A stretch of 57,210 nucleotides of DNA from Verrucomicrobia bacterium UBA1211 (GTDB lineage Bacteria > Verrucomicrobiota > Kiritimatiellia > RFP12 > UBA1067), in the NCBI GenBank assembly GCA_002309585.1, contig DBXN01000140.1:23780-80989 (forward strand), written 5' to 3'. This document shows, piece by piece, positions 65-54,943 of the stretch (the first letter of the stretch is position 1; each line of letters begins with the position of its first letter). Both the position numbers and the translations under genes were made by a program. A model generated the notes under the pieces. That model did no database searches and was not told the DNA's origin. It saw nothing but the letters and a program-made list of their open reading frames with translations.

Positions 65-106
65 CTTGACCTTTGGATTTGACCTTCGACCTTTCACCTT
101 TTTAGG
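65..106 (+). repeat. In-phase heptamer array CTTGACC TTTGGAT TTGACCT TCGACCT TTCACCT TTTTAGG upstream of tatA
   Basis: Read directly from the sequence. Six consecutive 7-nt units. Confidence 0.7.
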
Positions 107-1456: not shown

Positions 1457-1525
1457 CAGGTTAAACGGTGTAGGGGCCTGGTGCGCGTGGGGCGGTGTGT
1501 GGCGTTGGACAAAAGGGAGAATCGG

Positions 1526-2113: not shown

Positions 2114-2169
2114 GAAAGATTAGAAGGCTAAAGGATTAAAAGGTTAAAGAGGGAAACGGGGAAGAGGGG
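2114..2169 (+). repeat. Heptamer array: TAAAGG-type units followed by GGGGA-type units
   Basis: GAAAGAT TAGAAGG CTAAAGG ATTAAAA GGTTAAA GAGGGAA ACGGGGA AGAGGGG, in one phase, between hisB and the methyltransferase gene. Confidence 0.75.
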
Positions 2170-2171
2170 CT

Positions 2172-12226: not shown

Positions 12227-12299
12227 CGCTAATCGTTCCTCATGTTCGTCCTTACTTTAACATAAATCCGGGATGACAGAAAGCAAAACTAGGGCTTTT

Positions 12300-12348
12300 G
12301 TTCCCGCTCACCGCTATTTTCCGTTTCCTCGTTCATCTTTAATCTTTC
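12300..12348 (-). repeat. Inverted copy of the TAAAG/GGGAAC heptamer module
   Basis: Plus strand reads GTTCCCG CTCACCG CTATTTT CCGTTTC CTCGTTC ATCTTTA ATCTTTC (7 units). The reverse complement resembles the 2114-2169 array. Confidence 0.65.
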
Positions 12349-12404
12349 TGTGGCCGCTTGGATGTGTATAATAATCAATCGGTATTTATGAAAGGAGAGG
12401 ATGT

Positions 12405-13529: not shown

Positions 13530-13660
13530 GAAGAGGGGAACGGGGAAGAGGGAATAGGGAAGAGAAACGAGACGAACGGCGGGGTGAAATTTCATAATGG
13601 CATAATGCCATAATTTCACAATTCCAGAATGGAAACGCTCAACGCTCAACCCGCAACTGC
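13530..13660 (+). repeat. Modular intergenic element: GGGGAAC heptamers, palindromic GTGAAATTTCATAATGGCAT/AATGCCATAATTTCAC core, CTCAACG heptamers
   Basis: Shares the core and the terminal CTCAACGCTCAAC with the elements at 18.5, 23.6 and 50.1 kb. Confidence 0.75.
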
Positions 13661-15251: not shown

Positions 15252-15554
15252 AGTACCGGTATAAACAACTCACGTTTCTTCTCATTAAGAGACGGTGGTT
15301 CACAAGATGATCGAAATTGGGCGATGAAAAGATTTACCTGAAGGTGGAAATCATGCTAAAATATAAACCATAAAAGCCCTTGGCAGTGATCGTTTTTACG
15401 TGGACTCCTTCTCGCCATGGCGGGATTGGGTGTCCATTCCGACGCGCTTAAACGCTGCGACACCATTGGGGAGGATGACCGGATGGTGCCGGGTGTTCAG
15501 GAAAAGGGTTGAGGGATCGTTCAGAGGTTAAACGTTGAGTGTTGGGGAGGGGAG

Positions 15555-18421: not shown

Positions 18422-18600
18422 GGTAAGGGAATGAGTGACGAGTGACGGTTAATGAGTGACGGGTGACGAGAGCGAATGAAGAACGGGGGATTATGGCATT
18501 ATGGCAATGTGGCATTATGGCATTATGAAAATGTGGCGGAGTGAAATTCCATAATGGCTTAATGTCATAATTCCAGAATGAAACCTCAACGCTCAACGAT
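18422..18600 (+). repeat. Modular intergenic element, copy A: GTGACGR heptamers (18428-18490), WTRTGGCA octamers (18491-18586), CTCAACG units
   Basis: Its ~150 nt core is >90% identical by eye to 23505-23664. Confidence 0.85.
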
Positions 18601-20040: not shown

Positions 20041-21369
20041 ATGAATAGGGTGATGGGGATCTTGGGCGCATCGGCACTGTGCGTATGTGTCGGGAGTGGG
20101 GAAACCGCCGTGAAACCGCCGGCCGAGCGGATGGACCGCTCGAAACTGCTCATCGGTGCGTACTGTCTGCAGGCCAACGCCCGGACCGATGCGCATATCC
20201 AGGCGATCCGCGACTGCGGGGTGGACTTCATTATCGGTGTTCCGGCTGACGACCGCGCCACCCTCGACCAGTTCGCCAAATACGGAGTCGGGGCGATCGT
20301 GAACGGCGTCGTCCCCAGCTGGTGGGGCGGCGACGGCGAGCGCGCGGGAAAGATGCGGGAGGTGAACCCACCTGATCGATACGCGGCGGGGGCCAAGGCC
20401 TTCAAAGACCACCCCGCAGTCTGGGCGGTGGATATCGGCGACGAACCTTCCGCGCTCGATTTTCCCTACTACGGCGAGGTTGTGCGGCAGTTGAACAAGG
20501 CTCTTCCCGGTATGCCGCTCTATCTAAACCTCTATCCCAACTACGCGAGTGTGGCGCAGAATACGGGGAAGCAGACCGTCAACCAGCTCGGCACGCCGAC
20601 CTATACCGAACACATCGCGGCCTACTGTCGCGATGTCCCGCTCGACTACATCTCTTATGACTTTTATCCCTACGTCGGCCCTGCCGGGATCGATCGGTTC
20701 CTCTCGAAGATGTACGACAACTTCCTCGATGTCTCTGGGGCGTGCCGTCGCACCAAGCGTGCCTTCTGGTACATTCCGCAGGTGAACACCCGCGAGAATT
20801 TGCCCTCCACCAGCGAAAACTGTCTGCGTTTCCAGGCGTATGCGGCGATGAGTTTCGGAGCGGAGGTGATCACCTGGGCCTGTTGGTGCAAGGGGTGGTG
20901 GACCGACAACGTCCTTGATGCGGAGGGGAAGCAGACGGGACAGTACGCGAAGCTCCAGCGGGTCAACGCCGAACTGAAGCGGCTCGGTCCCGCGTACATG
21001 GCGTTCAGGAACGTCGCCACTCACTTTGTCGGATTCCCTGAGACCTCACCCCGGAATCCCACGCTCCCGTTTACCCGTACCGACGCGCTTGACGCTGGCG
21101 GATTCACGGCGCTTCGCGCCTCCAACGGCGCGGCGTTGTTAGTCGGGGAGATGGTCGCACGGGATCCGGAGGGCAAGGCCCGGGCGCTCTTTGTGACGGC
21201 GGCGGACGATCCGTGCGATGAGCGCCATGCCACGTTTGATATCGTTTTCCGCGCGAAAGCGGCGAAGACGTTCGGTGGACAGGGGCCTGTTCCTGTGCGG
21301 CGGCTTGACGACGGGCGATTCGCCGTCGCGATCGCCTCGTGCGCGGGGGTACTTCTGGTGGCGGAGTGA
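20041..21369 (+). CDS. Secreted putative TIM-barrel glycoside hydrolase, family uncertain
   Basis: Signal peptide. Alternating beta/alpha pattern with DIGDEPS and LNLYPNY, reminiscent of GH42/GH35-type barrels. Weak call. Confidence 0.35.
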   Translation: MNRVMGILGASALCVCVGSGETAVKPPAERMDRSKLLIGAYCLQANARTDAHIQAIRDCGVDFIIGVPADDRATLDQFAKYGVGAIVNGVVPSWWGGDGERAGKMREVNPPDRYAAGAKAFKDHPAVWAVDIGDEPSALDFPYYGEVVRQLNKALPGMPLYLNLYPNYASVAQNTGKQTVNQLGTPTYTEHIAAYCRDVPLDYISYDFYPYVGPAGIDRFLSKMYDNFLDVSGACRRTKRAFWYIPQVNTRENLPSTSENCLRFQAYAAMSFGAEVITWACWCKGWWTDNVLDAEGKQTGQYAKLQRVNAELKRLGPAYMAFRNVATHFVGFPETSPRNPTLPFTRTDALDAGGFTALRASNGAALLVGEMVARDPEGKARALFVTAADDPCDERHATFDIVFRAKAAKTFGGQGPVPVRRLDDGRFAVAIASCAGVLLVAE

Positions 21370-21422
21370 CGGGTGATCCCTGATACTCAGATTCGGTTGA
21401 AAAAGAGAAGTGAGGAAAGAAA

Positions 21423-23495
21423 ATGAAAAAACAACTGTTGTCGATGGTGTTGGTTCTGATGGGCGGGCTTTGCATGGCCGCCGATGATGGTGTGTGGATG
21501 TGGTATCCCGGCGAGTATGGGATTTGGCGCGGGAACGCGCTGCAGTTCGAGCGGCTTCAGTGGGGGGCGGAGTTGCCGCCTTTCTGGCCGAGTTACGGAT
21601 TTTATCCCGTTGTCGAGTTTTCCGCGCAATTCGATCTGGCGGAGGCGGAACGGGTCGAGATGACGGCGGATGGCGGATTCACCGTGAATGTGAATGGCCG
21701 TGACTGTGTCGCCCCGCTCGGCCGTGTGGATGTGCCGAAAGGACGCGTCACGATCAAGGTGAAAGTCGGGAACAACCTCCGGCCACCCGCGCTGCTCGTC
21801 AAGGGTAAGACCGTCAAGAGCGGTGAGGCGTGGAAGGTCGGATGGTATCCGGACGATCCGGCGGCATTGCCCGTCGAGTTCGACCGGGCGTTCGCCGATG
21901 CCGGGAACAAGCCGGGCGATTGGAAGCTGCGGCGCGAGCCTGCCGTGCCGGTTCAGATCCGGAAGCTTGACGGAGGGGCATTGCTCGCCGACTTCGGCCG
22001 GGAGACCTACGGGTACTTGGTCTTGACGGACATCAAAGGCGAGGGCGCGGTCAAGATCATCTATGCCGAGAGCGAGAAGGAGGCGCTGGATGAGGCACCC
22101 GCGCGTCCGCAGGACTGTATGGAGTTCGTCTCCTTGGGCGCGAAGGATGCGCCGAAATGCGTGTGGAAAAAGGGACGGGGTTTCCGTTACGTGTTTCTGC
22201 GTCCGTTCGAGGGAAATCTCTCCATAGGCGGCATCGCGATGGAGCGGGAGTTGCCGCGCGCCTCCAGACGCGGGGCGTTCCGGTGCAATGACGAGCGGGT
22301 GAACGCGATTTGGGATGTCGCCGCCGATACGCTGGAGTTGACCTGCCGGGAGGTCTTCATCGAGGGCGTGAAGCGTGACCATTGGGTCTGGAGCGGCGAC
22401 GCGGTTCAGAGTTTCCTGATGAACTACTATCTTTCGGGTGACTACGAGGGGTGCCGTGACACGCTCTGGTGCGTTCGCGGCAAGGATCCCGTGGTGAAAC
22501 ACCTGAACGGCATCATGGACTACTCCTTCCTTTGGTTCGACGCGGTGGCGACCTACGTGCTCTATTCCGGCGATCAGCGGTTTCTGCAACAGGCGAAGCC
22601 GCGCATGGACTCCCTGATGCGTTGGTGTCAGTCACGTCTCGATGCGAAGGGGCGTCCGGTGAACCAGCCGGGTGATTGGATCTTCATCGACTGGGCGCCC
22701 GAAGCCCTGCACAACGCGGGTGGGGTGTGCGCCTTCGAGATGATGGTCTACGCGCGGGCACTGGAGACGATGGTGATGACGGAGCCGCCTGAACAGAACT
22801 TCACCCTCGCTTCGGTGGCCCAAAAGGTCAAATCCGAGGTCAAAACCCTTTTCTGGAGTGAGGAGAACGGCTGTCTCATGCACCTGTTCAAGAATGACGG
22901 GACGCTTGATCCGCAGGTAACGCGTTATCCGAACATCTTCGGGCTCAAGTGGGGCTACTTCAACGACAGCGAGCGGGAGCGGGTTCTGAAGGGTGTGATG
23001 TTCAACGACAAGGTGATGAAGATCCAGACGCCCTACATGCGGTTTTACGAATTGGAGGCGTTGTGCGCGCTCGGGATGCAGAAGCAGGTTCTGGGCGAGA
23101 TCAGGGATTACTGGGGCGGAATGCTCGATCTGGGGGCGACGAGTTTCTGGGAACTCTACAATCCCGCCGAGAGCGGCGACCAGCACTATGCCATGTACGG
23201 CCGGCCTTACGGGAAGAGCCTCTGCCATGCGTGGGGTGCCTCGCCGATCTATCTGTTGGGACGGTACTTCCTCGGCGTGGAGCCGACCGAACCGGGATTC
23301 GCCGCCTACACGGTCAAACCCGTTCTCGGCGGGCTTGAATGGATGACGGGCAAGGTCCCGACACCCACGGGCGATATCGAGGTTACGGTCAAAGACGGCG
23401 CTGTCACGGTCAAAGGCAACGGCGGAAAGGGCAAGCTGGTGTGGAACGGCAAGAGCGTCCCCATTCCGGTCAATGAGACCGTTATGGTAGAGTGA
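21423..23495 (+). CDS. Six-hairpin glycosidase, GH78 alpha-L-rhamnosidase-like
   Basis: Signal peptide. C-terminal region FWELYNP...SLCHAWGASPIYLLGRYFLGVEPTEPGF is typical of the rhamnosidase (alpha/alpha)6 catalytic plus C-terminal domains. Confidence 0.5.
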   Translation: MKKQLLSMVLVLMGGLCMAADDGVWMWYPGEYGIWRGNALQFERLQWGAELPPFWPSYGFYPVVEFSAQFDLAEAERVEMTADGGFTVNVNGRDCVAPLGRVDVPKGRVTIKVKVGNNLRPPALLVKGKTVKSGEAWKVGWYPDDPAALPVEFDRAFADAGNKPGDWKLRREPAVPVQIRKLDGGALLADFGRETYGYLVLTDIKGEGAVKIIYAESEKEALDEAPARPQDCMEFVSLGAKDAPKCVWKKGRGFRYVFLRPFEGNLSIGGIAMERELPRASRRGAFRCNDERVNAIWDVAADTLELTCREVFIEGVKRDHWVWSGDAVQSFLMNYYLSGDYEGCRDTLWCVRGKDPVVKHLNGIMDYSFLWFDAVATYVLYSGDQRFLQQAKPRMDSLMRWCQSRLDAKGRPVNQPGDWIFIDWAPEALHNAGGVCAFEMMVYARALETMVMTEPPEQNFTLASVAQKVKSEVKTLFWSEENGCLMHLFKNDGTLDPQVTRYPNIFGLKWGYFNDSERERVLKGVMFNDKVMKIQTPYMRFYELEALCALGMQKQVLGEIRDYWGGMLDLGATSFWELYNPAESGDQHYAMYGRPYGKSLCHAWGASPIYLLGRYFLGVEPTEPGFAAYTVKPVLGGLEWMTGKVPTPTGDIEVTVKDGAVTVKGNGGKGKLVWNGKSVPIPVNETVMVE

Positions 23496-23664
23496 CGAGT
23501 GACGGGTGACGGGTGACGAGAGTGAATGAAGAATGGGTGATTATGGCATTATGGAAATATGGCAATGTGGCATTATGGCATCATGAAAATGTGGCGGAGT
23601 GAAATTCCATAATGGCTTAATGTCATAATTTCAGAATGAAACCCTCAACCCTCAACACTCAACT
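23493..23664 (+). repeat. Modular intergenic element, copy B
   Basis: Same module order as copy A, with one extra 8-nt unit in the octamer array. It starts at the TGA of the preceding gene. Confidence 0.85.
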
Positions 23665-25930: not shown

Positions 25931-28846
25931 ATGAAACGTGTCGTGATGTTGGCTGTGCTGATTGCGGGGACATGGGCGCGTGCGGCAATGCCCGCCGGTT
26001 TTACCGATGATCTGGATGCGGCGTTGGCGGCGGCCGGTGATCAACCTCAAAAAACGGTGCTGGCCCTTTTCACCGGAAGTGACTGGTGCGCGATGGGCAG
26101 GCGTCTTGAGCGCGAGGTGCTGTCGGACCGGGAATTTCTCCGTCAGGCGGAACAGCGTTTCATCTGCGTTTACATGGATTCGCCGAATGACATTTCCCTT
26201 TTATCGGAACCGGCGCGCATCGGCAACCCCAAGTGGGCGGAACGGTATGCCATTGCCGACTATCCGACCGTTTTGCTTCTGGATCCGGCCGGCAAGATCC
26301 TCGCGCGGACTGGTTACCGACCGGGAGGCGCCGAGGCGTATCTCCGTCACCTCTCGGAACTCCTTGAACGGGCACCCCTCGTCACCCGGTACCTGACACC
26401 CTATCGGGAGGAGTTTGATGCTTTGCGGAAAACGTCCGATACCTTTATGAGGGATACGGAGAGCCGGTCTAAACGGGCGAAAGAGGCGTTACGTTTCCGC
26501 TCCCAGGCCAAAGAGATTAGGAAACGGTTCCGCGCGGAGAAGGTCCCGGAACCGCTTGCGGCGGAAGCGGAGGCGTTTCTTGAGGAGATGCTGGCCTTTA
26601 TCCGCGATCTGCGTCTGTTGAACGAGAATGGCGGTTATCCGCCGCCGAAGCCGGAAGGGGAGCCGGTTCTGGTTCCGCCGCAACCGGAGGATGCGAACGT
26701 CGAAACGGCCTACTGCCGGGATGTGGCGCTTCCGTTCTGGCGCAGGCAGATCGTCGAGACCTTCCATCCCCCGGCGGAGATATCCGCCGACGTCAGCAAC
26801 CGCATCGCGCGTATACGGGAAGCGCTCGCACTCCGGCTGGCGACGGGTTATCCGGAATTCCCGACAGGCCGCGATTTAAATGACGCCGAAGAACTGTGGG
26901 ACAAGAAGTGCCGGGATGCCGGTGTCACGCTGGCCTACTATCTCAATCAGGATAATTTCAGCTGGTACAGGAAGGGGACGCAGATCCACAAAGAGGGGAT
27001 CGCCGCGCATGACGATGCGGCGGAACCGATGCTGGGTTTCCTCTTGCGGCGGAGCGCGGCGCTGGACGCGAGAGCGCGGTATGAGTATGATACGAACCAG
27101 ACGAAGGTCATGAGCGAGTCCGAGCCGATCTTCCGGGAGTATGCGGCGGCTTTCGCCCGTGTCGCGCCGATCTTCAAGGCGGCCGACCGCCGGATCGCCG
27201 AGAATCTGGATGTGATGGGAATGTTGCCGTCGGAGGCGCCGGCGCTGCTGGAGAATCCCTATCTGGGTCTCTGCAAGAAAGCGGCGGTATGCAGGGAGGA
27301 TGCCTTTCTGGCGCGCGGCCGCGGCTGGTCGAAGGATGTGACCCAGGAAGGGTGGATCGGCTGGGAAAAAAAGAACGCCGAGACCGAGAAGTATCTTCTT
27401 GAGGCGGTCAGGATGCGTCCCGGGGCCGCCCGTCCGGCGATGATGCTTGCGGATCTGTATGGCCGCTGGGGAGGCCGGGGAGACGCCTTTTACTGGTTCA
27501 ACCGCGGGGTCTCGAACTCCCTTGATCAGGCGGTCCCGTTTCTGATGGATGTCCTCAAGCATCAAACTACCCGGTGGGGCGGTTCGCGGGATATCCTCTA
27601 CGGGGTCGCCACCCAGGCCGTTTCATCGGTCCGGACGGACTCGACCTTCGCATACCGGACGGCGGCCTGCGCGTTGGACCGGATCTTTATCTATGAGGTG
27701 GAGCATCTTCCGCAGACCAATCTGGTCAACCGTATTGTCAAAACGGAAACGGCCGAGGCGTTTTACCGGATGTTCGACGCCTACGCCGCCGCGGGGGAAC
27801 AGCCGTTCATGCCCTCTCCGGACCACTTTCGGGGGATGGGACTCGCCTTCGCGATGCAGCGTGGTGAGTGGGGGAAGGCCCGCGAATATGTCCGTGGCAT
27901 GGGTCAGCCCCTGGTCTTTAAGCATGACGCATACTGGTTGAATCTCCGCGTCCCGCGCCAGGAATATTTCCACATCGGTTCTCCCCGCCCCGATTATTTG
28001 CATACGGTCAACCTGTTTGTCGCGATCGGCCAGAACCGGCACCGTGAAGCGCTTTTCGCGGCGGAGGAGATGGCGGGCCGGAACCAGCATGAAGCCGCCC
28101 TTGCGCAGTATGAGAAGTTGCTCAAAGAGAACCTTTCATGGGAAGAACGCAATGTCGTTTCGCGGCATCTTTTCCTCGAACGGCTGAGGTTTCAGGAGTC
28201 CGCCGGGGGATGGGTGGATGTCATGCCGTCGCAACGGGGTTCCGAAGCGTGGAGTCTGGGCGCATTCGTTCAGATCGGTTCGGACGGATGGGCGCGGCCC
28301 GACAGGAAGACCGACTGTTTCCGTTATCGCACCGAAATCCCCCTGCCGTGGCGGAATGTGGAGTATGAGGCGACCGTCCATTTTGAACGGAAAGATCCTG
28401 ACCAGAAGGTCTGGACGATCGGCTGGGGACTGGGGCGTTGGAATTTGGGAACCAAGCAGATTTGGTATGGACAGTCCTGGGCCTTTCCCTATGTCCATTT
28501 CCGGCGAGATGCGAAGGGTGACCATGTCGCGATCGAGTCGATGAATCCCGCCAACTACAAAACAAACGGTGGCTCGGTCGCCAATGACGGAACCTGCGCT
28601 GAATATACGGTCTACAAAGGAGATCTCGCCTCCTCCGACACGCACACCTTTAGCCTCAAGACCACGCATGACGCATTCATCTTCACGGTTGACGGCCAGC
28701 GTGTCCTGACCATCCCCACCGAGGAGATCATCACCTTCACCCCGTACCGCCAACGTCTCAATCCCTACGACAACACCTTCCCGGTCTGGAAACTTTCCAC
28801 CAACACCGCCTTCTCCGCTTACCGTTACAGGCGGATAACGCCTTAG
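25931..28846 (+). CDS. Secreted 971 aa multidomain protein: monothiol thioredoxin-like N-domain, helical middle, lectin/glucanase-like C-domain
   Basis: Signal peptide. LALFTGSDWCAMGRRLEREV matches thioredoxin-fold proteins, but CxxC is reduced to CAMG. The C-terminus is beta-rich (WTIGWGLGRW...FIFTVDGQRV). Confidence 0.5.
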   Translation: MKRVVMLAVLIAGTWARAAMPAGFTDDLDAALAAAGDQPQKTVLALFTGSDWCAMGRRLEREVLSDREFLRQAEQRFICVYMDSPNDISLLSEPARIGNPKWAERYAIADYPTVLLLDPAGKILARTGYRPGGAEAYLRHLSELLERAPLVTRYLTPYREEFDALRKTSDTFMRDTESRSKRAKEALRFRSQAKEIRKRFRAEKVPEPLAAEAEAFLEEMLAFIRDLRLLNENGGYPPPKPEGEPVLVPPQPEDANVETAYCRDVALPFWRRQIVETFHPPAEISADVSNRIARIREALALRLATGYPEFPTGRDLNDAEELWDKKCRDAGVTLAYYLNQDNFSWYRKGTQIHKEGIAAHDDAAEPMLGFLLRRSAALDARARYEYDTNQTKVMSESEPIFREYAAAFARVAPIFKAADRRIAENLDVMGMLPSEAPALLENPYLGLCKKAAVCREDAFLARGRGWSKDVTQEGWIGWEKKNAETEKYLLEAVRMRPGAARPAMMLADLYGRWGGRGDAFYWFNRGVSNSLDQAVPFLMDVLKHQTTRWGGSRDILYGVATQAVSSVRTDSTFAYRTAACALDRIFIYEVEHLPQTNLVNRIVKTETAEAFYRMFDAYAAAGEQPFMPSPDHFRGMGLAFAMQRGEWGKAREYVRGMGQPLVFKHDAYWLNLRVPRQEYFHIGSPRPDYLHTVNLFVAIGQNRHREALFAAEEMAGRNQHEAALAQYEKLLKENLSWEERNVVSRHLFLERLRFQESAGGWVDVMPSQRGSEAWSLGAFVQIGSDGWARPDRKTDCFRYRTEIPLPWRNVEYEATVHFERKDPDQKVWTIGWGLGRWNLGTKQIWYGQSWAFPYVHFRRDAKGDHVAIESMNPANYKTNGGSVANDGTCAEYTVYKGDLASSDTHTFSLKTTHDAFIFTVDGQRVLTIPTEEIITFTPYRQRLNPYDNTFPVWKLSTNTAFSAYRYRRITP

Positions 28847-28888
28847 TCTGACGTCTGATGTCCGATGTTCCAACCACCTAACCATCCC
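28847..28888 (+). repeat. Heptamer array TCTGACG TCTGATG TCCGATG TTCCAAC CACCTAA CCATCCC
   Basis: Immediately after the stop of the 971 aa gene. Confidence 0.6.
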
Positions 28889-30578: not shown

Positions 30579-31661
30579 ATGAAGACCTCCGATTTCCACT
30601 ATGACCTGCCGCAGGAGTTGATTGCCCAGGAGCCGCCTGCCGAACGCGGCCAGTCGCGGATGATGGTGCTCCATCGTCAGGACGGGCGGTTGGAGCATCG
30701 GCACATTGCGGATATCGTGGACTATCTGGATGCGAACGATCTGCTGGTGGTCAATGACACGAAGGTTTTCCCCGCCCGAATCAAGGGACAGTGGTCGGAC
30801 ACGGGCGGCGCGCTGGAGTTGCTGTTGCTGGAGCCCCTACCCGTGCCGGGGGAGCGGGTCGGCGCGGCGGAGGAGGTGACCTGCTGGTCCTGCATCAGCG
30901 GTTCGGGACGCCCGGTCAGGGTTGGGTTGCGTGCCCGGTTCGCGGAGGACCATCTGGAGGCGGAGATCCTGGAGAAGACGGGGGAGGGGACCTGCCGGGT
31001 TCTCTTTCTGGCGGACGGTCCGCTGATGGGGATTTTGGACCGGTACGGTTTGACCCCTGTCCCGCCCTACATCCATCGGTCGGGCGATCCGCGTCAGGCG
31101 CGGCTGGACCGGGAGCGGTATCAGACCATCTATGCCCGCGAAGTGGGGGCGGTCGCCGCCCCGACGGCGGGTCTGCACTTTTCGGAGGCGATCCTTCAGC
31201 GGCTCGCCGAGAAGGGCGTGCAACGGGCGTCGGTCACACTGCATGTCGGCCCCGGCACCTTCAAGCCGGTCAAGTGCGAGACGGTGGAGGATCACCGGAT
31301 GGATGCCGAGCGGTATACCGTTTCGGAAGAGACGGCGCGGGCGATCGCCGCCTGCCGGGCGCGGGGCGGACGGGTTGTGGCGGTCGGAAGCACCAGCGTG
31401 CGGACCCTGGAGACCGTTGCGGCGGCGCACGACGGGACAGTTGTGGCGGAACATGGAAGCAGTTCGATCTTCATCTATCCACCCTTCACCTTCCGGGTGA
31501 CCGATGTGATGCTGACCAATTTCCATCTGCCGCAATCGACGCTGCTGATGATGGTCTCGGCCTTGGCGGGGCGGGAGCGGATCCTTTCCGCCTATCAAGA
31601 GGCGATCCGTGAACGGTATCGGTTCTTCAGCTACGGGGATTGCATGCTGATTGTGGGTTGA
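30579..31661 (+). CDS. queA: S-adenosylmethionine:tRNA ribosyltransferase-isomerase
   Basis: MKTSDFHYDLPQELIAQEP, PPYI, AAPTAGLHF, VGSTSVRTLE. Confidence 0.9.
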   Translation: MKTSDFHYDLPQELIAQEPPAERGQSRMMVLHRQDGRLEHRHIADIVDYLDANDLLVVNDTKVFPARIKGQWSDTGGALELLLLEPLPVPGERVGAAEEVTCWSCISGSGRPVRVGLRARFAEDHLEAEILEKTGEGTCRVLFLADGPLMGILDRYGLTPVPPYIHRSGDPRQARLDRERYQTIYAREVGAVAAPTAGLHFSEAILQRLAEKGVQRASVTLHVGPGTFKPVKCETVEDHRMDAERYTVSEETARAIAACRARGGRVVAVGSTSVRTLETVAAAHDGTVVAEHGSSSIFIYPPFTFRVTDVMLTNFHLPQSTLLMMVSALAGRERILSAYQEAIRERYRFFSYGDCMLIVG

Positions 31662-31809
31662 GGGTTGAGCGTTGAGAAAAGGTTAAAAAACTAAAGAGGG
31701 GAACGGGGAATGGGGAAGAGTGTTCAGTGAGCAGTGGTCAGTGTTCAGTGGTCAATGGGACAGTCGTGTGTCGCGTGTCCCGTCCCGCTCAACGCTCAAC
31801 GCTCAACCC
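31655..31809 (+). repeat. 155 nt modular element bounded by 22 nt inverted repeats (GGGTTGAGGGTTGAGCGTTGAG / CTCAACGCTCAACGCTCAACCC)
   Basis: 21 of 22 positions are complementary. The interior has GGTTAAAA, GGGGAAC x3, NNCAGTG x5 and a GGGACA/TGTCCC hairpin (31757-31781). Confidence 0.8.
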
Positions 31810-31884
31810 GCAACGTTCCTCGGGGAACGGGGAAGAGGACTTGACGTTTCTTGATTTTAGGTCGCGATAAAAGGGGATGATACG

Positions 31885-46096: not shown

Positions 46097-46544
46097 ACTG
46101 CCGCTGGAGAAGGTTCTGCCGCATCGGGCGCCGATGATTCTGCTGAGCGATTATGACCCCGATTCCTTTTCGGAGGAAGAGGTGAGCGCGTCGGTGACGG
46201 TGACGGACGGTGATGTCTTTTATGATGCCGCCTTGGAGGGCGTCCCCGCTTCGGTCGCGTTGGAGTATATGGCGCAGACCGTCGCCTGTTATGTCGGGCT
46301 GGTCCAGGTCCGCAATGGACGGGATCCCCGAATCGGGTTCGTGCTGGGGTCGCGGAAGATCGACATCACGATTCCCGTTTTCAAAAAGGGGGCGCGGTAT
46401 GGCATCCGCGCGCGGCTCCTCTTTACGGATGACGCCTTCGCCTCGTTTGAGACGGTCATCACCGATGCCGATGGCGGGGTTGTCGCCAGCGGGATCCTGA
46501 ACGCCTTTCAGCCGGAAGATCCGTACGCGCACGTTTCCCCTTGA
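46089..46544 (+). CDS. Hot-dog fold 3-hydroxyacyl-ACP dehydratase (ApeP-like)
   Basis: LPHRAPMILLSD N-terminal motif and ~150 aa size. Overlaps the KS gene by 8 nt. Confidence 0.6.
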   Translation: MDKLPLEKVLPHRAPMILLSDYDPDSFSEEEVSASVTVTDGDVFYDAALEGVPASVALEYMAQTVACYVGLVQVRNGRDPRIGFVLGSRKIDITIPVFKKGARYGIRARLLFTDDAFASFETVITDADGGVVASGILNAFQPEDPYAHVSP

Positions 46545-46618: not shown

Positions 46619-48154
46619 ATGAAGAGACAAATGTGGTATTATCGGATGGCGGAAGTGGCGGTTCTCTCCTTGGTGACGGGGATGACCGCATTGGGCGGCC
46701 AGATTTTCGACGGCGACGGTTCCGATGAGCCGGGTTTTGTTCCGCCGCCCCCGCGTAAAGAGGTCCCGCCGCCGCCCGCGAACATGTCCGGCGGCGAGAC
46801 GTTTGTTCCCTATCCGCCGCCGCCCGCGACGCCGATGTCCCGTTCCGAAAAGAAGAATCCGCCCAAACCCCCGACGATGTTCACCAAGCTGACCTCGCCG
46901 TATGGGGAGGTGGACTGGAATGCCCGCCCAAACGATCTGAACAATCTGCTGAAGTCGCTGAAGGGGATGGCGGATGTCGATTACGATTTCGAGGCGAAGT
47001 CGTTCTCCGAGATCGACGAGGATCCCGATCAGAATCCGATTCTCTACCGTTCCGGTCATTTCCACTGGAGCCTCAACGCGGGGGAGAAGAAAAAGCTCCG
47101 CGATTATCTGCTCCGGGGCGGGACGATCATCCTCAATGCGGGCATGGGATCCAAGCCGTTTTACGATTCGGCGATCCGGGTGCTGAATGAGGTCTTCCCC
47201 GAGGCGCCGGTGCAGCGGCTGAGCGCAGACCACCCGATCTTCCACGCCTACTACTCGCTGGACAAGGTGAACTACCGTCCGGGCGTCCGTGCCGTCTACA
47301 AGGGGAACGACCCGTGGCTGGACGGCGTGACCATTGACTGCCGGACGGTCGCGATCATCTCCCGGTTCGGGATGGAGGTCGGCTGGGATCCGCTGGAGGA
47401 TGACAACATCCTGGCGTATGAGCAGGAGTCCGCGCAACAGCTTGGGATGAACATTTTGAGTTACGCCAGCGCGATGCGTAACTGGACGCTGGAGAACATG
47501 AAGAAGACCAAATTCGAGGACTCGAAGCAGGTCTCCGACGCGGGATCGATGAATATCGCCCAGGTGATCTACAGCGGCGAATGGAAGACCCGTCACGTCG
47601 GCCTCTCGGTTCTGCTCTCGCAGTACAATGTCCAGACCGGCGTCCCGGTCAAATTCACGACGAAAGAGATGAAGCTGACCGATCCCAAACTCTTCGATTC
47701 GCCGATTCTCTATCTGACCGGGCATGAGACCTTCACCCTGAAGCCCGAGGAGATTACCGCGCTGAGGACCTATCTCAATGGCGGCGGGCTGCTTTTCGCC
47801 GAGGCCTGCTGCGGACGGAAGGCGTTTGATGTCTCCTTCCGCGCGATCATGTCGCAGGTTCTGCCCGGTGTCCAGCCGTCGATGCTGGGGCAGGGCCATC
47901 CGCTCTACAAGCTCCCCAACACCATCACTACCATGAAGGTGACGCCCGCCTGCGCCAAGTCATTCAACAACGCGCCGGCGATCGCCCCGCAGATTCTCAC
48001 CTGGATGGTGGACGGCAACCCCGCCGTGATCTACAGCCCGATCGGCATGGCGGGCGCCTGGGAACTTTCCCCCAACAAGTATTGCAACAGCTATCTAGAG
48101 GATGACGCCATCAAACTGGGCGTGAACATCCTGATTTACGCAAGCACAAGGTAA
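46619..48154 (+). CDS. Membrane-anchored protein with two tandem DUF4159-like domains
   Basis: Signal anchor and Pro-rich linker, then two copies of the pattern ...PILY(R/L)(S/T)GH..F.L...E...LR.YL..GG......C.G...FD.S.R......P. AGGAG before the ATG at 46619. Confidence 0.55.
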   Translation: MKRQMWYYRMAEVAVLSLVTGMTALGGQIFDGDGSDEPGFVPPPPRKEVPPPPANMSGGETFVPYPPPPATPMSRSEKKNPPKPPTMFTKLTSPYGEVDWNARPNDLNNLLKSLKGMADVDYDFEAKSFSEIDEDPDQNPILYRSGHFHWSLNAGEKKKLRDYLLRGGTIILNAGMGSKPFYDSAIRVLNEVFPEAPVQRLSADHPIFHAYYSLDKVNYRPGVRAVYKGNDPWLDGVTIDCRTVAIISRFGMEVGWDPLEDDNILAYEQESAQQLGMNILSYASAMRNWTLENMKKTKFEDSKQVSDAGSMNIAQVIYSGEWKTRHVGLSVLLSQYNVQTGVPVKFTTKEMKLTDPKLFDSPILYLTGHETFTLKPEEITALRTYLNGGGLLFAEACCGRKAFDVSFRAIMSQVLPGVQPSMLGQGHPLYKLPNTITTMKVTPACAKSFNNAPAIAPQILTWMVDGNPAVIYSPIGMAGAWELSPNKYCNSYLEDDAIKLGVNILIYASTR

Positions 48155-48262
48155 GGTTAAAAGATTAAGCAGGGGAACGGGGAATGGGGAACAGAGGGAA
48201 CAGGGAACAGGGAAGAGGGAATAGTGAACAGGGAAGAGAACGCTCAGCCCTCAACCCTCCTT
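48155..48262 (+). repeat. GGTTAAAAG module plus 13 in-phase heptamers (GGGGAAC ... CCTCAAC)
   Basis: 48172-48262: GGGGAAC GGGGAAT GGGGAAC AGAGGGA ACAGGGA ACAGGGA AGAGGGA ATAGTGA ACAGGGA AGAGAAC GCTCAGC CCTCAAC CCTCCTT. Confidence 0.9.
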
Positions 48263-48270
48263 TGTTGCGG

Positions 48271-49089
48271 ATGAAGCGGGTGAGAGAGACGGTCATGGCG
48301 ATACTCGCGTGTTGCGCGTTCGGCGCGTGGGGCGCGACCAAACAGGAGACGGCTTTTCTGTCGGTCTGGACGGTGCATAGCCAGTCGCCCGACAACCATG
48401 CGGCGGTCATCGCCGCCTGCCAGCGTGTCATGGACACCTCCGCCACCCTGGGTGAGTTCCTGCCGGTCGTCAAGACCTTGGCGGGATGGCATCTGCTCGC
48501 CTCAGGGAAAGAGGCCGATGCGATCCGGGTTTTGGAGAGTGTGCTGACAACAGACAAGAAGCCCGCGCCGATGGCCCGGTATGCCGACATCATGGCGCGG
48601 CGGTGGCTCTCCCGGCTGGACATCCGGAAGGTGGATGCCGCGTTGAAGAGCCACTACGCCGCGCATGTGGAATATCCCTCCTCCCTCGCACCGATTCTCT
48701 CGCTGCCCAAACCCGCCACGCCCGCGAAAACCGACCGGTTCGGCGATGGATGGATCTACCGGCTTTCGGGATTCAGCCGCCTGACCGATCTGAAGGCGCA
48801 GCGGTATGTGCTCTACAGCAAGACGCTCGGAACGTCGCTTTCCCGTTTGAGCGATCTGCCTTTTACCGCCTATTCTCCGCAGAAGTCCGTGACTTTCCTC
48901 AGCCGCAAGATGACCACGCCGCTGACGATCGAGATCGAGACCGTCGTGAACGGCGAGAAGCAGAAGGGCGTGGCGACCGAGGGCAACCTCTGCAATGGCG
49001 TCCGGTTCCTGAAACTCGCCTCCGACCTCCAGTTCGTCCTCTTCGCCGACAGCGAATGCGATTTCTGGCTTGTCTCAACGAAACGTTGA
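48271..49089 (+). CDS. Secreted hypothetical protein
   Basis: Signal-peptide-like MAILACCAFGAWG after the ATG at 48271. The upstream part of the track ORF (from 48184) is a translation of the heptamer repeat. No recognisable family. Confidence 0.4.
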   Translation: MKRVRETVMAILACCAFGAWGATKQETAFLSVWTVHSQSPDNHAAVIAACQRVMDTSATLGEFLPVVKTLAGWHLLASGKEADAIRVLESVLTTDKKPAPMARYADIMARRWLSRLDIRKVDAALKSHYAAHVEYPSSLAPILSLPKPATPAKTDRFGDGWIYRLSGFSRLTDLKAQRYVLYSKTLGTSLSRLSDLPFTAYSPQKSVTFLSRKMTTPLTIEIETVVNGEKQKGVATEGNLCNGVRFLKLASDLQFVLFADSECDFWLVSTKR

Positions 49090-49172
49090 GGGCAAGAGAC
49101 AATCACTGATCAATGATCACTGGACACTCTTCCCTCTTCCCTGTTCCCTATTTCCCGTTCCCTTTGTTTAAG
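49085..49172 (-). repeat. Inverted copy of the modular element: TTAAAC, GGGAAC-type heptamers, CAGTGAT units, CCCTCAAC
   Basis: The reverse complement reads CTTAAACAAAGGGAACGGGAAATAGGGAACAGGGAAGAGGGAAGAGTGTCCAGTGATCATTGATCAGTGATTGTCTCTTGCCCTCAAC. Confidence 0.8.
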
Positions 49173-49964: not shown

Positions 49965-50109
49965 GGACCGGGAACGAGAGATCGCTGCATCCCCCGATCC
50001 TTTCTTATACGTTCTCCACCTGATGGTACTCATATCCCGATTCCCGTTTCAATTGCATGAAGAGGATATACCCAACCGGCGGCGTGAGGGAAGCCGGAAA
50101 TCGGGCAAA

Positions 50110-50192
50110 GTTATCATTCTGACATTATGCCATTATGAAATTTCACATTGCCACACTGCCATATTGCCACGATTTCACAATTCCACAATGGG
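50110..50192 (-). repeat. Octamer array YRNTGCCA, the reverse complement of the WTRTGGCA module, with a GAAATTTCAC core
   Basis: ACATTATG CCATTATG AAATTTCA CATTGCCA CACTGCCA TATTGCCA CGATTTCA CAATTCCA in one phase from 50122. Confidence 0.75.
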
Positions 50193-50375
50193 TGCATGGG
50201 TTGTTTTCCAGTTTCAGTCGGCATGGGTGAGAAACACAGATGCACACGATTCGAACTGCGCCACTTCTGCGCTTGAATAGGAGCGGAGGGTCAAGTAAAA
50301 TAAATGACCATTCCATCGGGGTGTCAGTTTGATTTTCGGTAGGGACATCGGTGGGAAGCGAGGTTTTGCGTTTAT

Positions 50376-51683: not shown

Positions 51684-53752
51684 TGCGCGGGGCGGGCGGA
51701 ATGGCCGCGCTGTTCGCGCTGGCGGTCTGCGCTTGGGCGGAACCCCGTCCCGATCTCGTCGCGCGGGTGGCCGACGGCGAACTGAAAGAGGCACGCGCCT
51801 CCTGGTGGGGTTTCGATGCCGAGGACGCGACCCGCGCGCTTCAGGCGGCGATTCGTTCGCGTGTCCCCAAACTGATCATCGACAAAATGCCGAGTCCGTG
51901 GGTCGTCACGCCGTTGGAGGGCGTAAGCGACCAGACGCTCTTTTTCGAGCCGGGTACGGAGATTCGGGCGAAACCGGGGTGTTTCAAGGGAACCGGCGAT
52001 ATCCTCTTCTCCCTCAAATGCGTGACGAATGTCACCCTCTCGGGATATGGGGCGGTTTTGCGGATGCGGCGGGATGATTACGACAAGCCGCCCTATACCC
52101 ATGCCGAGTGGCGCCATACCCTTGCGATCCGCAGTTGCCGAAACATCAAGGTTTACGGTTTGACGTTGGCCGAGAGCGGCGGCGACGGCATCTATCTGGG
52201 CTCGGTCTCCGACAAATGGCCGAATACGGATGTCCATATCAAGGATGTCCTGTGCGATAAGAACTATCGTCAGGGAATCAGCGTGATCTCGGCCGACGGG
52301 CTTCTGATTGAGAATACTGTCATGCGCGGAACGCGCGGAACGGCGCCGCAGGCCGGAATCGATTTCGAGCCGAACCGGAACGGTGAGCGGCTTTCCCGTT
52401 GCGTGATGCGCGATTGCGTCACGGAGAACAACGAGGGCGACGGGTATCAGTTTTACCTGCCGAATCTGGTTCGTGATTCCGCGCCGCTGGACATCCGGCT
52501 GGAGCGGTGCCGTTCGACCGGCGACCGGAACGGATTCGATTTCACGACGGGGAATAGCGGTCCGCTCGCCGTGACGGGAAGTGTTACGGTCGCTGATTGC
52601 GTCTTCGAGCGTCCCCGGAATCAGGGGATCCGCATCACCGGCAAATCGGTCGAGGGACCTTCGATGCGGTTTGAACGTTGCCAGGTTCTTGATGTGCCCG
52701 CCGATCAGCGTTTTACCGATGTATCCCTTGCCGCGCGGAAGAAGGACCGGTTACCGCCGGGCGGGATTGTATTTGACCGGCTGACGGTCCGGCAGAGCGA
52801 GGCGCGGCCGTGGATCGCCCTGTGTAACGCAGGCCGGACCGGTGGGACAGTTGAGGCGCTTTCGGGCAGCGTGACGATCCGGGCGGAGGGCCGCGAGGAG
52901 ACGGTGCGTCTGGACGAGGCGTGGCGCCAGAAGGCCTTTCCACCCCGTTTCTCTGTCCGTATCCCCGAGGTGAAACACGATCTGAAGGATGCGGTCATGG
53001 TCGATCCTGAACCCGGGGCGATGCGGAAACATTCGATCCTCAAGATCCGGAACAACGCGCGTTATCTCTTCTTTGCGGAGAAAGGGCGCACCGTCCATTT
53101 CCTTGCCCGCCAGTTTCAGGTCGGGAAGTATCCGTTGTCGAAAAAGCCGATGTGGGTGGTGAGGCGCGATTGGAGCAAGACCGATTGGCGGTGTGGATTG
53201 ATGCCGTCCCGGAAGCCGACCGATAAACCGGATGGCGGTGTCACGTGGCTGGAGCAACTGCCGCTTCCCGGTTTTGAGTTGACGGAGGTTTCGGTTGTGG
53301 TTCCCGAACGCGGCTTCTATGCGCTGGAGGTGGATGTCGGGGCGAACGGTTTCGCGTTGGCGGCGGCCGACGTCCCGGTCGCGATCATGCTGGATGAGGG
53401 CGGGCAGGATCTCGTCTATACCCAGGGCGCGTTTTATCTCCCGGTGCCGAAGGGGACCGGGAAATTCGCGGTGGCGGTGTCGGGTGCGGATGATGTCGAG
53501 ACCGTCCAGGTGAAGCTATTTGATCCGGACGGAACGTTGGTTTGGCATCGGGACCCGGTGGGGGATTGGGAACGCTATGAGGCGCTGCATGACGAGGGGC
53601 TTGAGGGCGGTCTCTGGAAAGGCGAGCTGCTGCGTCCTTCCAAGGGCGTCCTGGAGGATTGCCGGATCGAGTTGTTCGGTCTCCCGCCCTATCTCTTCCT
53701 GACCGACAGCCGGTATTGGAGTTGGGGAATGGGGAGCGGGGAAGGGGAGTGA
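51683..53752 (+). CDS. Secreted right-handed parallel beta-helix repeat protein (polysaccharide lyase or hydrolase-like)
   Basis: Signal peptide after the ATG at 51683. That ATG shares one nt with the aminotransferase TGA. PbH1-like turns: GGDGIYLG, NYRQGISVIS, GIDFEPN, NEGDGYQFY. Confidence 0.6.
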   Translation: MRGAGGMAALFALAVCAWAEPRPDLVARVADGELKEARASWWGFDAEDATRALQAAIRSRVPKLIIDKMPSPWVVTPLEGVSDQTLFFEPGTEIRAKPGCFKGTGDILFSLKCVTNVTLSGYGAVLRMRRDDYDKPPYTHAEWRHTLAIRSCRNIKVYGLTLAESGGDGIYLGSVSDKWPNTDVHIKDVLCDKNYRQGISVISADGLLIENTVMRGTRGTAPQAGIDFEPNRNGERLSRCVMRDCVTENNEGDGYQFYLPNLVRDSAPLDIRLERCRSTGDRNGFDFTTGNSGPLAVTGSVTVADCVFERPRNQGIRITGKSVEGPSMRFERCQVLDVPADQRFTDVSLAARKKDRLPPGGIVFDRLTVRQSEARPWIALCNAGRTGGTVEALSGSVTIRAEGREETVRLDEAWRQKAFPPRFSVRIPEVKHDLKDAVMVDPEPGAMRKHSILKIRNNARYLFFAEKGRTVHFLARQFQVGKYPLSKKPMWVVRRDWSKTDWRCGLMPSRKPTDKPDGGVTWLEQLPLPGFELTEVSVVVPERGFYALEVDVGANGFALAAADVPVAIMLDEGGQDLVYTQGAFYLPVPKGTGKFAVAVSGADDVETVQVKLFDPDGTLVWHRDPVGDWERYEALHDEGLEGGLWKGELLRPSKGVLEDCRIELFGLPPYLFLTDSRYWSWGMGSGEGE

Positions 53753-53759
53753 CGGGACG

Positions 53760-54842
53760 ATGAGTTGCCCGAGAGAGCGGACACGGCGGATCCAAGTGGG
53801 GAATCTGGCGATCGGCGGCGGGGCGCCGGTGAGTGTCCAGACGATGGCGAACGCCGATCCGCATGATGCGGTGGCGCTTTTGGACCAGATCCGTGAAGCG
53901 GCGGATGCCGGATGCGATCTGGTCCGCCTGACGGTGCCCGACCCTGAGGCGGCGGTCGTCTTCGGGAAGGTCCGCGAGGCCTCCCCGCTCCCGCTTGTTG
54001 CGGATATCCATTTTGATTACCGGTTGGCGTTGGCCGCGTTGGATGCGGGTGCGGACGGGCTTCGGATCAACCCCGGTAATATCGGCGGGCCGGATAAGGT
54101 TCAGGCGGTGGTCGAGGCCGCGCGCAAACGGAACAATGTCCCGATCCGGATCGGGGTCAACGGCGGATCGCTTGAGAAAGAGGTTTTGGCGAAGTACGGC
54201 TCCGCTACGCCGGAGGCGCTGGTCGAGAGCGCGATGCGCCATGTCGCGCTGCTGGAGGCGGCGGAGTATCACGAGATTAAAATCTCTGTCAAGGCATCCG
54301 ATGTGCCGCGTACCCTGGCGGCCTATCGGCTGCTTTCAGCGCGGACCCGCTATCCGCTGCATCTGGGCGTGACGGAGGCGGGCACCTTCCTGCCGGGTAC
54401 GGTCCGTTCCTGTGTCGCGCTCGGCGCGCTGTTGCTGGAGGGAATCGGCGACACGATCCGCGTGTCGCTGACCGACCGTCCGGTGGAGGAGGTTCGGGTG
54501 GGGGTTGAGCTGTTGCGGAGTGTGGGATTGCGTGCGCCGGGCGCGTCGGTCACCTCCTGTCCGACCTGCGGACGGACGCAGGTCGATGTCGTCGGGATGG
54601 CGAAGGCGGTCGAGGCCCGGCTGGATCGTTTCTACCGCGCGCATCCCGATGCGCCGCGTCCCCATGTCGCAGTGATGGGGTGTGTGGTGAACGGACCCGG
54701 AGAGGCCAAAGGCGCGGACATCGCCGTCGCCGGTGGTAAGGGATGTTATGCGCTGTTCGTGAAGGGTGTGTTTGTCAAGACGTTGCCGGAGCATGAGACT
54801 TTGGCCGAGATCGAACGGCAGGTAGAGGAATATGAAGGTTAA
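53760..54842 (+). CDS. ispG: 4-hydroxy-3-methylbut-2-en-1-yl diphosphate synthase
   Basis: IQVGNLAIGGGAPVSVQTM, ADIHFDYRLA, INPGNIG, SCPTCGR...GCVVNGPGE (Fe-S Cys ligands). Confidence 0.9.
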   Translation: MSCPRERTRRIQVGNLAIGGGAPVSVQTMANADPHDAVALLDQIREAADAGCDLVRLTVPDPEAAVVFGKVREASPLPLVADIHFDYRLALAALDAGADGLRINPGNIGGPDKVQAVVEAARKRNNVPIRIGVNGGSLEKEVLAKYGSATPEALVESAMRHVALLEAAEYHEIKISVKASDVPRTLAAYRLLSARTRYPLHLGVTEAGTFLPGTVRSCVALGALLLEGIGDTIRVSLTDRPVEEVRVGVELLRSVGLRAPGASVTSCPTCGRTQVDVVGMAKAVEARLDRFYRAHPDAPRPHVAVMGCVVNGPGEAKGADIAVAGGKGCYALFVKGVFVKTLPEHETLAEIERQVEEYEG

Positions 54843-54890
54843 AAGATTAAAGGGTTAAAAGGTTAAAGAGGGGAACGGGGAATGGGGAAC
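54835..54890 (+). repeat. GGTTAAAAG units followed by GGGGAAC GGGGAAT GGGGAAC
   Basis: Begins inside the last codons of ispG. TAA recurs at 54840, 54848, 54856 and 54864. Confidence 0.8.
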
Positions 54891-54943
54891 GGATGTCGCG
54901 GATCTTTTCCTGACGGGACGGACGTGAGTTGACAGAGGAGGAG

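Follow-up and report, generated by a model that had tools for sequence, protein, structure and literature searches.

Short tandem arrays between the genes of a Kiritimatiellae genome form a dispersed mosaic repeat oriented with its neighbouring genes

What are the runs of 7- and 8-nt direct repeats that occupy many of the gaps between genes in a 57,210-nt stretch of the genome of Verrucomicrobia bacterium UBA1211 (contig DBXN01000140.1, positions 23,780 to 80,989; hereafter the window)? Bacterial intergenic spacers have been known since 1990 to contain tandem heptamer arrays, which are still poorly understood. The focal spacer of this study, at 48152-48262, lies between a gene for a DUF4159 protein and a 272-aa gene, and an earlier reading of its letters (the original prediction) had proposed that such spacers hold a structured element family with a fixed module order rather than separate microsatellites. 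We found that a single dispersed mosaic repeat, lineage-specific and ~60-200 nt long, is present in spacers of the window as whole or partial copies, and that this family is an unusually mosaic variant of the known but unexplained bacterial heptamer repeats.

We built a gene map from open reading frames (ORFs) supported by their GC content at third codon positions, corrected it by Pfam matches and gene calls on matching public contigs, and counted on the final map all non-redundant arrays of period 7 or 8 with at least 2.8 copies. Non-coding DNA, which makes up 6.6% of the window, held 21 of the 23 arrays, and the other two lay at the extreme 3' ends of ORFs. Enrichment over shuffled intergenic sequence had been set beforehand as a check on the original prediction, and it was pronounced: 100 dinucleotide shuffles of the spacers gave 0.04 ± 0.2 arrays (maximum 1) against the 21 observed. 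On an early gene map, same-base autocorrelation in spacers reached 0.343 at lag 7 compared to 0.262 in dinucleotide shuffles (z = 10.5), with a second peak at lag 8 (z = 9.2) and echoes at lags 14 and 16, and coding DNA showed period 3 only. Like the long simple sequence repeats with 5-11-nt units of Mrazek et al. (2007), the arrays of the window are longer and more numerous than composition predicts, mostly heptameric, and biased towards non-coding DNA. Furthermore, 17 of the 23 arrays adjoin a different array.

In the focal spacer, Tandem Repeats Finder (TRF) reported a period-7 array at 48173-48235 with 8.7 copies and 79% matches, together with a 21-nt higher-order period. The sequence at 48172-48262 matches its earlier quotation exactly, but the thirteen heptamers into which it had been divided do not share a single phase: a 3-nt offset, AGA at 48193-48195, separates (GGGGAAY)3 from (GGGAASA)n, and any 91 nt can be divided into 13 heptamers. 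All other sites that had been named carry arrays, the one at 12290-12350 in degenerate form, whereas the statement that arrays occur in almost every spacer longer than 40 nt was too strong, as 11 of the 23 spacers of at least 40 nt have clear arrays and 3 have weak ones. As a separate observation, TRF scored higher-order periods that span precisely three units (21 nt in heptamer arrays, 24 nt in octamer arrays) above the basic period at 48173-48238, 18490-18537, and 23544-23595 of the window, and also at L029:1416-1467.

The same arrays are present, 100% identical to the window, in the Logan assemblies SRR5324824 and SRR094926, and at 97.5-99.5% identity in the ENA assemblies ERZ28653429, ERZ27257298, and ERZ27256983 and one NCBI metagenome-assembled genome (MAG); the agreement of five independent assemblies rules out an assembly artefact. 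The Logan SRR5324824 contigs all start and end within array spacers (~49-13572, 23611-31721, and 50201-54886), as expected if the same repeats recur elsewhere in the genome. A CRISPR reading was rejected because no unique spacers separate the repeats. The arrays were likewise rejected as coding DNA, since the downstream orthologue starts at the equivalent of 48271/48295 and most of the words contain stop codons.

Counting as a module any run of two or more tandem units in which no unit has more than one mismatch, we distinguished the modules listed in Table 1, where a prime marks an inverse. A single partial order, E'-A-B-(C or S)-D-D'-E, fits all multi-module spacers. The spacers 18431-18600 and 23490-23664 lie 5 kb apart between four unrelated genes, and are nevertheless 86-95% identical over ~190 nt, an identity that extends over the non-tandem linkers GAGNGAATGAAGAAYGGGKG and GGAGTGAAATTCC; moreover, AGGGGAACGGGGAATGGGGAA occurs as an exact copy in three spacers. 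The constant order is thus accounted for by spacers holding the whole or part of one dispersed composite element. An additional spacer was found in a sister strain (L278, 99.1% identical), where it accompanies a different left neighbour of the aminotransferase gene and has no counterpart in the window; it runs from a stop codon through a long B array, C, the same GAATGAAGAA linker, and E to the ATG. This spacer is an independent confirmation of both vocabulary and order, and the first case of B together with C. The predicted fixed order therefore holds in all multi-module spacers of the window and in this additional one, except that 31662-31884 starts with an inverted E and has a second B after E, and what had been described as a modular grammar is the internal order of one composite. 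The proposal of a structured family instead of separate microsatellites is borne out by near-identical composites between unrelated genes, common junctions, locked orientation, and hairpin-forming inverted arrays. A metagenome search for GTGAAATTYCATAATGGC, which is the turn conserved in the D/D' hairpin, returned 120 loci, all of them chance matches or coding matches to ...GVKFHNG... of solute-binding proteins, and none of these 120 loci had arrays.

The copies are oriented and placed relative to genes in a uniform way. All 13 spacers that have asymmetric modules place their purine-rich strand on the coding strand of the gene beside them, an outcome with a binomial probability of ~1e-4 if orientation were random. 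Three of these copies lie on the minus strand, beside minus-strand genes, which argues that orientation is linked to the direction of the gene and not to that of replication. In every co-directional or convergent case the first unit either contains the upstream stop codon or follows it by 0-10 nt: the first E' unit holds the TGA of queA, A units hold the TAA codons of ispG and tatC, C units hold the TGA codons of gene 20041-21369 and the rhamnosidase gene, and a single E' unit within the palindrome CTCAACGAAACGTTGAG holds the stop codon of gene 48271-49089. The leading modules A, C, E', G, and F all carry TAA or TGA, and at a period of 7 or 8 three units suffice to stop every reading frame. 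At the other end, E arrays terminate 8-14 nt before the next start codon, beside a GGTGA-type ribosome-binding site. The arrays thus take up the interval between the upstream stop codon and the next gene's ribosome-binding site.

Structure was predicted to differ between copies. The predicted fold of the 31645-31820 RNA (-82 kcal/mol, z = -7.2) is closed by E' and E, which pair in a 26-bp stem whose 26-nt arms (31651-31676 and 31788-31813) are 92% complementary; both inverted ends are found in this one copy only. The D/D' hairpin of 18431-18600 had a predicted energy of -32.8 kcal/mol (z = -3.9), two further D/D' folds gave z = -3.6 (the 13530 composite) and z = -2.25, and that of the fourth copy was not significant. 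A formal quadruplex motif, with at least four tracts of three or more G, was present in 4 of 8 B arrays, including 48172-48198 of the focal spacer, and the remaining ones had two or three such tracts. Consensus scans found no canonical intrinsic terminators or sigma-70 promoters within the arrays, the counts being at or below shuffle expectation. The D units contain TGGCA, and a sigma-54 promoter reading of them was rejected on inspection because the spacing is unsuitable.

Table 1. Modules and array-bearing features of the window (positions in window coordinates; x, number of units)
Feature	Position	Strand	Module order	Description
Module A				unit AAGGTTAA
Module B				unit GGGGAAY
Module C				unit GTGACGR
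Module S				unit NNCAGTG
Module D				unit ATTATGGC
Module D'				inverse of D, CATAATGN
Module E				unit CTCAACG
Module E'				inverse of E
Module F				unit TTGACCT
Module G				unit TCTGACG
F array	65..106	+		TTGACCT/TCGACCT/TTCACCT, upstream of tatA
Two A-like units	1453..1469	+		overlap tatC TAA stop
A-B spacer	2114..2171	+	A-B	hisB to methyltransferase gene; identical in strain contigs L275 and L276
Degenerate A-B copy	12290..12350	-		upstream of minus-strand transporter gene 10940-12226; read directly from the sequence
B-D'-E composite	13530..13657	+	B-D'-E	directly after stop of glucuronyl-esterase-like gene
GC-rich hairpin	13659-13719			between two convergent genes, beside the B-D'-E composite; -40 kcal/mol, z -4.3
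Fragments	15505..15550	+		TTGAGGG..., AGGTTAAA, CGTTGAGTGTTG; just upstream of gene 15555
First C-D-D'-E composite	18431..18600	+	C-D-D'-E	C (GTGACGR), linker GAGAGCGAATGAAGAA, D (ATTATGGC x5), D' (CATAATGN), E (CTCAACG); GH20 to metallophosphatase genes
Two C units	21364..21377	+		contain stop of gene 20041-21369
Second C-D-D'-E composite	23490..23664	+	C-D-D'-E	rhamnosidase to NAGLU-like genes; first C unit gives TGA stop
G array	28845..28868	+		TCTGACG/TCTGATG/TCCGATG, directly after stop codon
Most complete copy	31651..31835	+	E'-A-B-S-hairpin-E-B	queA-lipase spacer; E' (TTGAGSG x3), A, B, S (NNCAGTG x5), small hairpin, E (CGCTCAA x4), B
Focal spacer	48152..48262	+	A-B-E	DUF4159 gene to 272-aa gene
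Focal A array	48152-48168	+		AAGGTTAA-like, TAA stop inside
Focal B array	48171-48238	+		GGGGAAY x3, then GGGAASA x6-7
Focal E array	48239-48262	+		CYCARCC
B-S-E copy	49084..49163	-	B-S-E (49163 to 49084)	3' end of minus-strand gene 49110-50033
Palindrome	at 49084..49163 copy			CTCAACGAAACGTTGAG, spans stop codon of convergent plus-strand gene
D-D' copy	50108..50200	-	D-D' (50200 to 50108)	upstream of minus-strand gene 49110-50033
B array	53723..53749	+		GGGGAAT GGGGAGC GGGGAAG GGG, 3' end of beta-helix protein gene
A-B spacer	54834..54893	+	A-B	A x4, then B x3; first A unit gives ispG TAA stop

Comparison with near-identical strains showed how the arrays change. In L142 and L143 (97.5-98.7% identical) the queA-lipase spacer differs from that of the window only by the gain of one 7-nt E' unit and the loss of one 7-nt B unit, and the composites at 18431 and 23490 differ from each other by one 8-nt unit; judged from these alignments, such whole-unit gain and loss is the signature of slipped-strand mispairing. 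The A-B spacers showed no unit changes in strains 99.1-100% identical, and 54834..54893 differed by one substitution at 99.1-99.5% identity. Synteny breaks between near-identical strains fall within array spacers, at 28957 and 50241 of the window, and the arrays may act as recombination junctions, the alternative being a chimeric contig. The breaks appear where L278:1-503 is set against window 49738-50240, and L143:1-1238 against the window upstream of 28957, with different neighbours joined in each case; L278, with its new left neighbour, extends ~0.9 kb beyond the right end of the window.

More distant relatives do not have the family. In a relative with 79% QueA identity the queA-lipase gap is 22 nt and 13.8 kb contain no period-7/8 arrays, and the 31651..31835 element is absent from L144. 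Relatives with 89% and 82% identity in the DUF4159 protein have no real period-7/8 arrays in 10-21 kb, where TRF gave two-copy 8-mers only. At the focal junction, the 89% relative (L266:11546-11803, compared to window 48155-48270) has a 12-nt gap and an 81-aa TSCPD-domain gene in place of the 116-nt array spacer; this gene lies between the DUF4159 gene and the 272-aa gene, where the window has none. Another contig, L277 (83% nucleotide identity), has no heptamer arrays and carries two hairpins, GGTAGGGCGCGTTCTCCGAACGCGCCGC, upstream of ispG (L277:6795-6963) that resemble repetitive extragenic palindromic (REP) sequences. The MAG GCA_017960125.1 contains this ispG contig as well as a contig whose IspG is identical to that of the window (DNA 99.5%), and with two distinct ispG contigs it looks like a mixture of two species.

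A sister species (L272, ~86% nucleotide identity) also has an array-built spacer at the queA-lipase junction (L272:1172-1354). Its words are the unrelated octamers GGTAGTGC and GGTAGTTA, neither of which was found in the window; the octamers enclose a 36-nt hairpin, CTTGCCCTCCGTAGCCGCCGAAAGCGCGTAGGAGGG, and the block as a whole (76 nt) occurs twice. The replacement of the words argues against a conserved sequence code. The array-built design persists at the junction while its words turn over, and together with the relatives above it marks the family as young, lineage-specific, and rapidly replaced.

How does the element relate to known repeats? REP sequences, bacterial interspersed mosaic elements (BIMEs), REP doublets forming hairpins (REPINs), and mycobacterial interspersed repetitive units (MIRUs) are species-specific, dispersed, extragenic mosaics of motifs that form hairpins, lie in 3' untranslated regions (3'-UTRs) or between cistrons, and are oriented with transcription. 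MIRUs vary in copy number, and REP, BIME, and MIRU elements mark rearrangement hot spots; the REP motif is a single imperfect palindrome of 20-40 nt and the MIRU unit measures 40-100 nt. The element of the window resembles the REP and BIME elements of enterobacteria and pseudomonads and the MIRUs of mycobacteria in being an extragenic, dispersed, oriented mosaic of a few motifs with hairpins. However, each of its motifs is itself a tandem array of direct 7-8-nt units and not a 20-40-nt imperfect palindrome, hairpins arise from inverted arrays only, and no REP-associated tyrosine transposase (RAYT) was found in the window.

The original prediction had also likened the arrays to the short tandemly repeated repetitive (STRR) sequences of heterocystous cyanobacteria, and the likeness holds in kind: both are dispersed, intergenic, species-variable tandem heptanucleotides, and GGGGAAY arrays, the same as module B, occur frequently in Nostoc, Microcoleus, Stigonema, and their relatives. 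The classical units differ, however. Those of STRR1-3, which Mazel and colleagues reportedly described in 1990, are said to have the consensus CCCCAGT, TTGGTCA, and CAACAGT; as arrays they are absent from the window, where we found no two-unit matches beyond chance and a single match in coding DNA. Furthermore, the element of the window occurs in Kiritimatiellae, adds octamers, and joins its modules with locked order and orientation.

The original prediction recognised no equivalent description for a genome of this kind. A full-text search of a limited literature collection indeed found no description of heptamer repeats in Kiritimatiellae, Verrucomicrobia, or Planctomycetes, nor in other PVC bacteria, but equivalents outside the cyanobacteria have been published. 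Mrazek et al. (2007) are cited as reporting heptanucleotide long simple repeats as the commonest class in many genomes and as proposing that they arise by slippage, the 7 nt matching the footprint of the polymerase. Rehm et al. (2015; PMC4692102) described quadruplex-forming GGGAATC and GGGGA(C/T)T heptamers in Xanthomonas and Nostoc that are transcribed and vary in length between close relatives. The unit of module B is nearly identical to these, but the arrays of the window show no preference for four units (counts range from 2 to ~10), B is one of at least seven modules, and the quadruplexes here are predicted. The TAACTGA repeats of marine Beggiatoaceae (MacGregor, 2015; PMC4679880) are intergenic and gene-oriented, carry stop codons such that three units stop all frames, and overlap the upstream stop codon, a behaviour common to modules A, C, E', F, and G; unlike the many words placed in fixed series across the spacers of the window, they consist of one word located mainly just upstream of start codons. 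The four- and five-heptamer elements of Geobacter metallireducens and the (GATAGRA)n arrays of Chloroflexus occur in tens of scattered copies per genome, some of them form inverted pairs, and they are absent from the sister species, as here; in contrast to the element of the window they are single-word, lie in part within genes, and have no described multi-module order.

To place module B more widely we surveyed (GGGGAAY)3 in one genome per species and obtained at least 120 loci. About half of the loci listed belong to filamentous cyanobacteria, and the others listed to Gemmatimonadota, Longimicrobium, Lysobacterales, Kiritimatiellae and rumen MAGs, Verrucomicrobia, Planctomycetes, and Chloroflexia. 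Among the tandem repeats at the listed loci period 7 is the dominant one, and of 436 period-7/8 arrays there, 26% lie within 40 nt of a different array and 22% have an inverted partner within 300 nt; with its 17 of 23 arrays beside a different one, the window is the more extreme case. A locus of Planctomycetaceae (L056:90-300) bears the series GCGAGGR-GGGGAAY-CTCCTCG-CTCNACA followed by an ATG. The orientation of GGGGAAY was mixed across phyla, as far as rough ORF calls allow, and a cross-phylum orientation rule was rejected; the sense-strand rule thus belongs to the family of the lineage studied here. Spacers with composite or inverted arrays in other phyla include, besides the Planctomycetaceae locus, L024:1129-1370, L045:115-232, L076, and L033. 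Brevifollis has four to five different arrays in succession, a Verrucomicrobia MAG has the inverted or composite arrays ATTGTGGA / AATTCCAC, and Longimicrobium has ACACAGAG / TCTCTGTG as well as GGGGAAC / TTCCCCG. Viral contigs gave 20 matches to (GGGGAAY)3.

We favour, with a probability of roughly 55%, the interpretation that the element is a REP/BIME-like, largely selfish, transcribed intergenic repeat that is tolerated in one orientation only and evolves by slippage. It would be co-transcribed as part of 3'-UTRs or intercistronic RNA, in which inverted arrays would fold into long hairpins and G-rich arrays perhaps into quadruplexes. Tolerated in one orientation as a semi-selfish repeat, it would at most provide a generic punctuation of mRNA, acting on 3' ends, processing, or the decoupling of neighbours, and would carry no sequence-specific code; it would spread via recombination or a trans-acting enzyme and be replaced quickly in evolution. 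Several points weigh against this interpretation. The window covers 57 kb of one Kiritimatiellae genome, with a few overlapping strain contigs for comparison. Most of its genes lie on the plus strand, so the separation of gene orientation from replication orientation depends on the three minus-strand copies. Spacers with direct arrays only, including the focal one on either strand, had no significant fold (z -1.1 to +1.3), so hairpins are not the common denominator of the family. No target-site duplication is evident at the queA-lipase junction, where the divergence of the 79% relative prevents insertion boundaries from being set, and the 57-kb window has no gene for a transposase, a RAYT, or a reverse transcriptase. 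Absence from close relatives fits a dispensable element and would also fit a fast-evolving functional one. Finally, co-transcription and any role at the RNA level are inferences.

If the structures themselves were under selection, the E'/E and D/D' hairpins and the G4-prone GGGGAAY arrays would serve as factor-independent terminators, RNase III sites, or stabilizers of 3' ends, and so set the expression of neighbouring genes. The strength of these hairpins, the four B arrays with at least four G tracts, the lack of canonical hairpin-plus-T-run terminators from the spacers, and the locked orientation all agree with such a role, as does the position of the G-rich strand, which is the sense strand within ~40 nt after stop codons as in the transcribed heptamers of Rehm et al. 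(2015). Nevertheless, every second B array falls short of four G tracts and one strain has two units only, spacers with direct arrays alone do not fold, close relatives manage the same gene junctions without any such element, and GGGGAAY points either way in other phyla; we therefore regard selected structure as possible but rather improbable. A composite with E' and E as its ends could also have been moved in trans by a transposase encoded elsewhere, in the manner of miniature inverted-repeat transposable elements (MITEs) or REPINs, partial copies then being decayed insertions. The terminal inverted arrays of 26 bp look the part, and near-identical copies between unrelated genes, presence or absence at the same junction between species, and synteny breaks at the spacers would follow, but a pair of ends is found in one copy only, there is neither a recognisable target-site duplication nor a transposase or RAYT gene in the 57 kb, and abutment to stop codons with locked orientation would be unusual for simple cut-and-paste. 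Such mobilisation is unlikely in our view.

Slippage acting independently in each unconstrained spacer, with mutational bias producing similar words, would make the arrays a pure by-product of mutation. It is suggested by whole-unit gain and loss between strains, by different words at the same site in sister species, by the dominance of period 7 in other array-rich genomes, and by the polymerase footprint of 7 nt reportedly proposed by Mrazek et al. (2007). It fails to explain why distant spacers have in common long composites that include non-tandem linkers (three instances), why order is constant and orientation is the same in 13 of 13 spacers, and why relatives of similar GC content and lifestyle are array-free, and is for us a highly improbable sole cause. 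Still less credible is that single-strand RNA or DNA binders such as cold-shock-domain proteins recognise the individual 7-8-nt units, the arrays thereby loading chaperones or regulators onto intercistronic RNA. Proteins of this kind can bind a single heptamer each. A heptamer does match the cold-shock-protein footprint discussed by MacGregor (2015), and the direct-array spacers are predicted to be unstructured, are purine-rich on the sense strand, and keep a locked orientation; yet the candidate binder is still hypothetical, the words are not conserved between sister species, and several words would require several binders. A more elaborate proposal, which we consider doubtful, is that the ordered arrays punctuate operon RNA as a real code, which a lineage-specific mechanism would write and renew, with words that co-evolve with their readers. 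Stop-rich A, C, or E' would mark the gene end, G-rich B and the D/D' hairpin would follow, and C-rich E would lie at the next ribosome-binding site, with one unit bound per protein (cold-shock-domain or quadruplex- or dsRNA-specific binders being examples). Co-evolution of words and readers would lead sister species to keep the design and change the words.

Heptamer arrays now extend to Kiritimatiellae and other PVC bacteria and, in a small survey, to Gemmatimonadota, Longimicrobium, and rumen MAGs, and one genome can organise them into a dispersed mosaic whose module order and orientation to transcription are both fixed and which reaches from stop codon to ribosome-binding site. The design is kept at an orthologous junction where a sister species has wholly replaced the words, and the family is missing from slightly more distant relatives. 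Word turnover with a kept design is compatible with a selfish family under rapid renewal or with a reader-writer system, and not with a conserved sequence code. In practice, the arrays fragment short-read assemblies of the lineage and mark rearrangement breakpoints, and their whole-unit variation is of possible use in strain typing.

Among named homologues, those closest to QueA, the DUF4159 protein, and IspG come from Kiritimatiellae MAGs, and the host is not a heterocystous cyanobacterium. Related array-bearing loci were found in MAGs from sheep rumen and goat gut, and SRR094926 is a cow-rumen data set; the habitat of the host is probably the rumen or gut. Genes beside arrays are ordinary and mutually unrelated, and include tatAC, hisB, queA, nadB, ispG, glycoside hydrolase genes, a Bat/DUF4159 operon, and an aryl-polyene-like cluster. 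Across the window, Rfam 15 gave zero matches at gathering score and ARAGORN found no tRNA or tmRNA genes. The GC-rich hairpin beside the B-D'-E composite is modelled as a structure that may act as a bidirectional terminator without a T-run. A cluster at 38972-46544 that resembles aryl-polyene or lipid biosynthesis (AMP-binding/ApeI-like, glycosyltransferase, thioesterase, MMPL-like, ketoacyl synthase, and ApeP-like dehydratase genes) has tight or overlapping junctions that are array-free. Two long spacers, 14886-15554 (669 nt) and 19707-20040 (334 nt), are AT-richer, almost array-free, and have neither a long ORF nor an Rfam match; they may contain promoters or small RNA genes.

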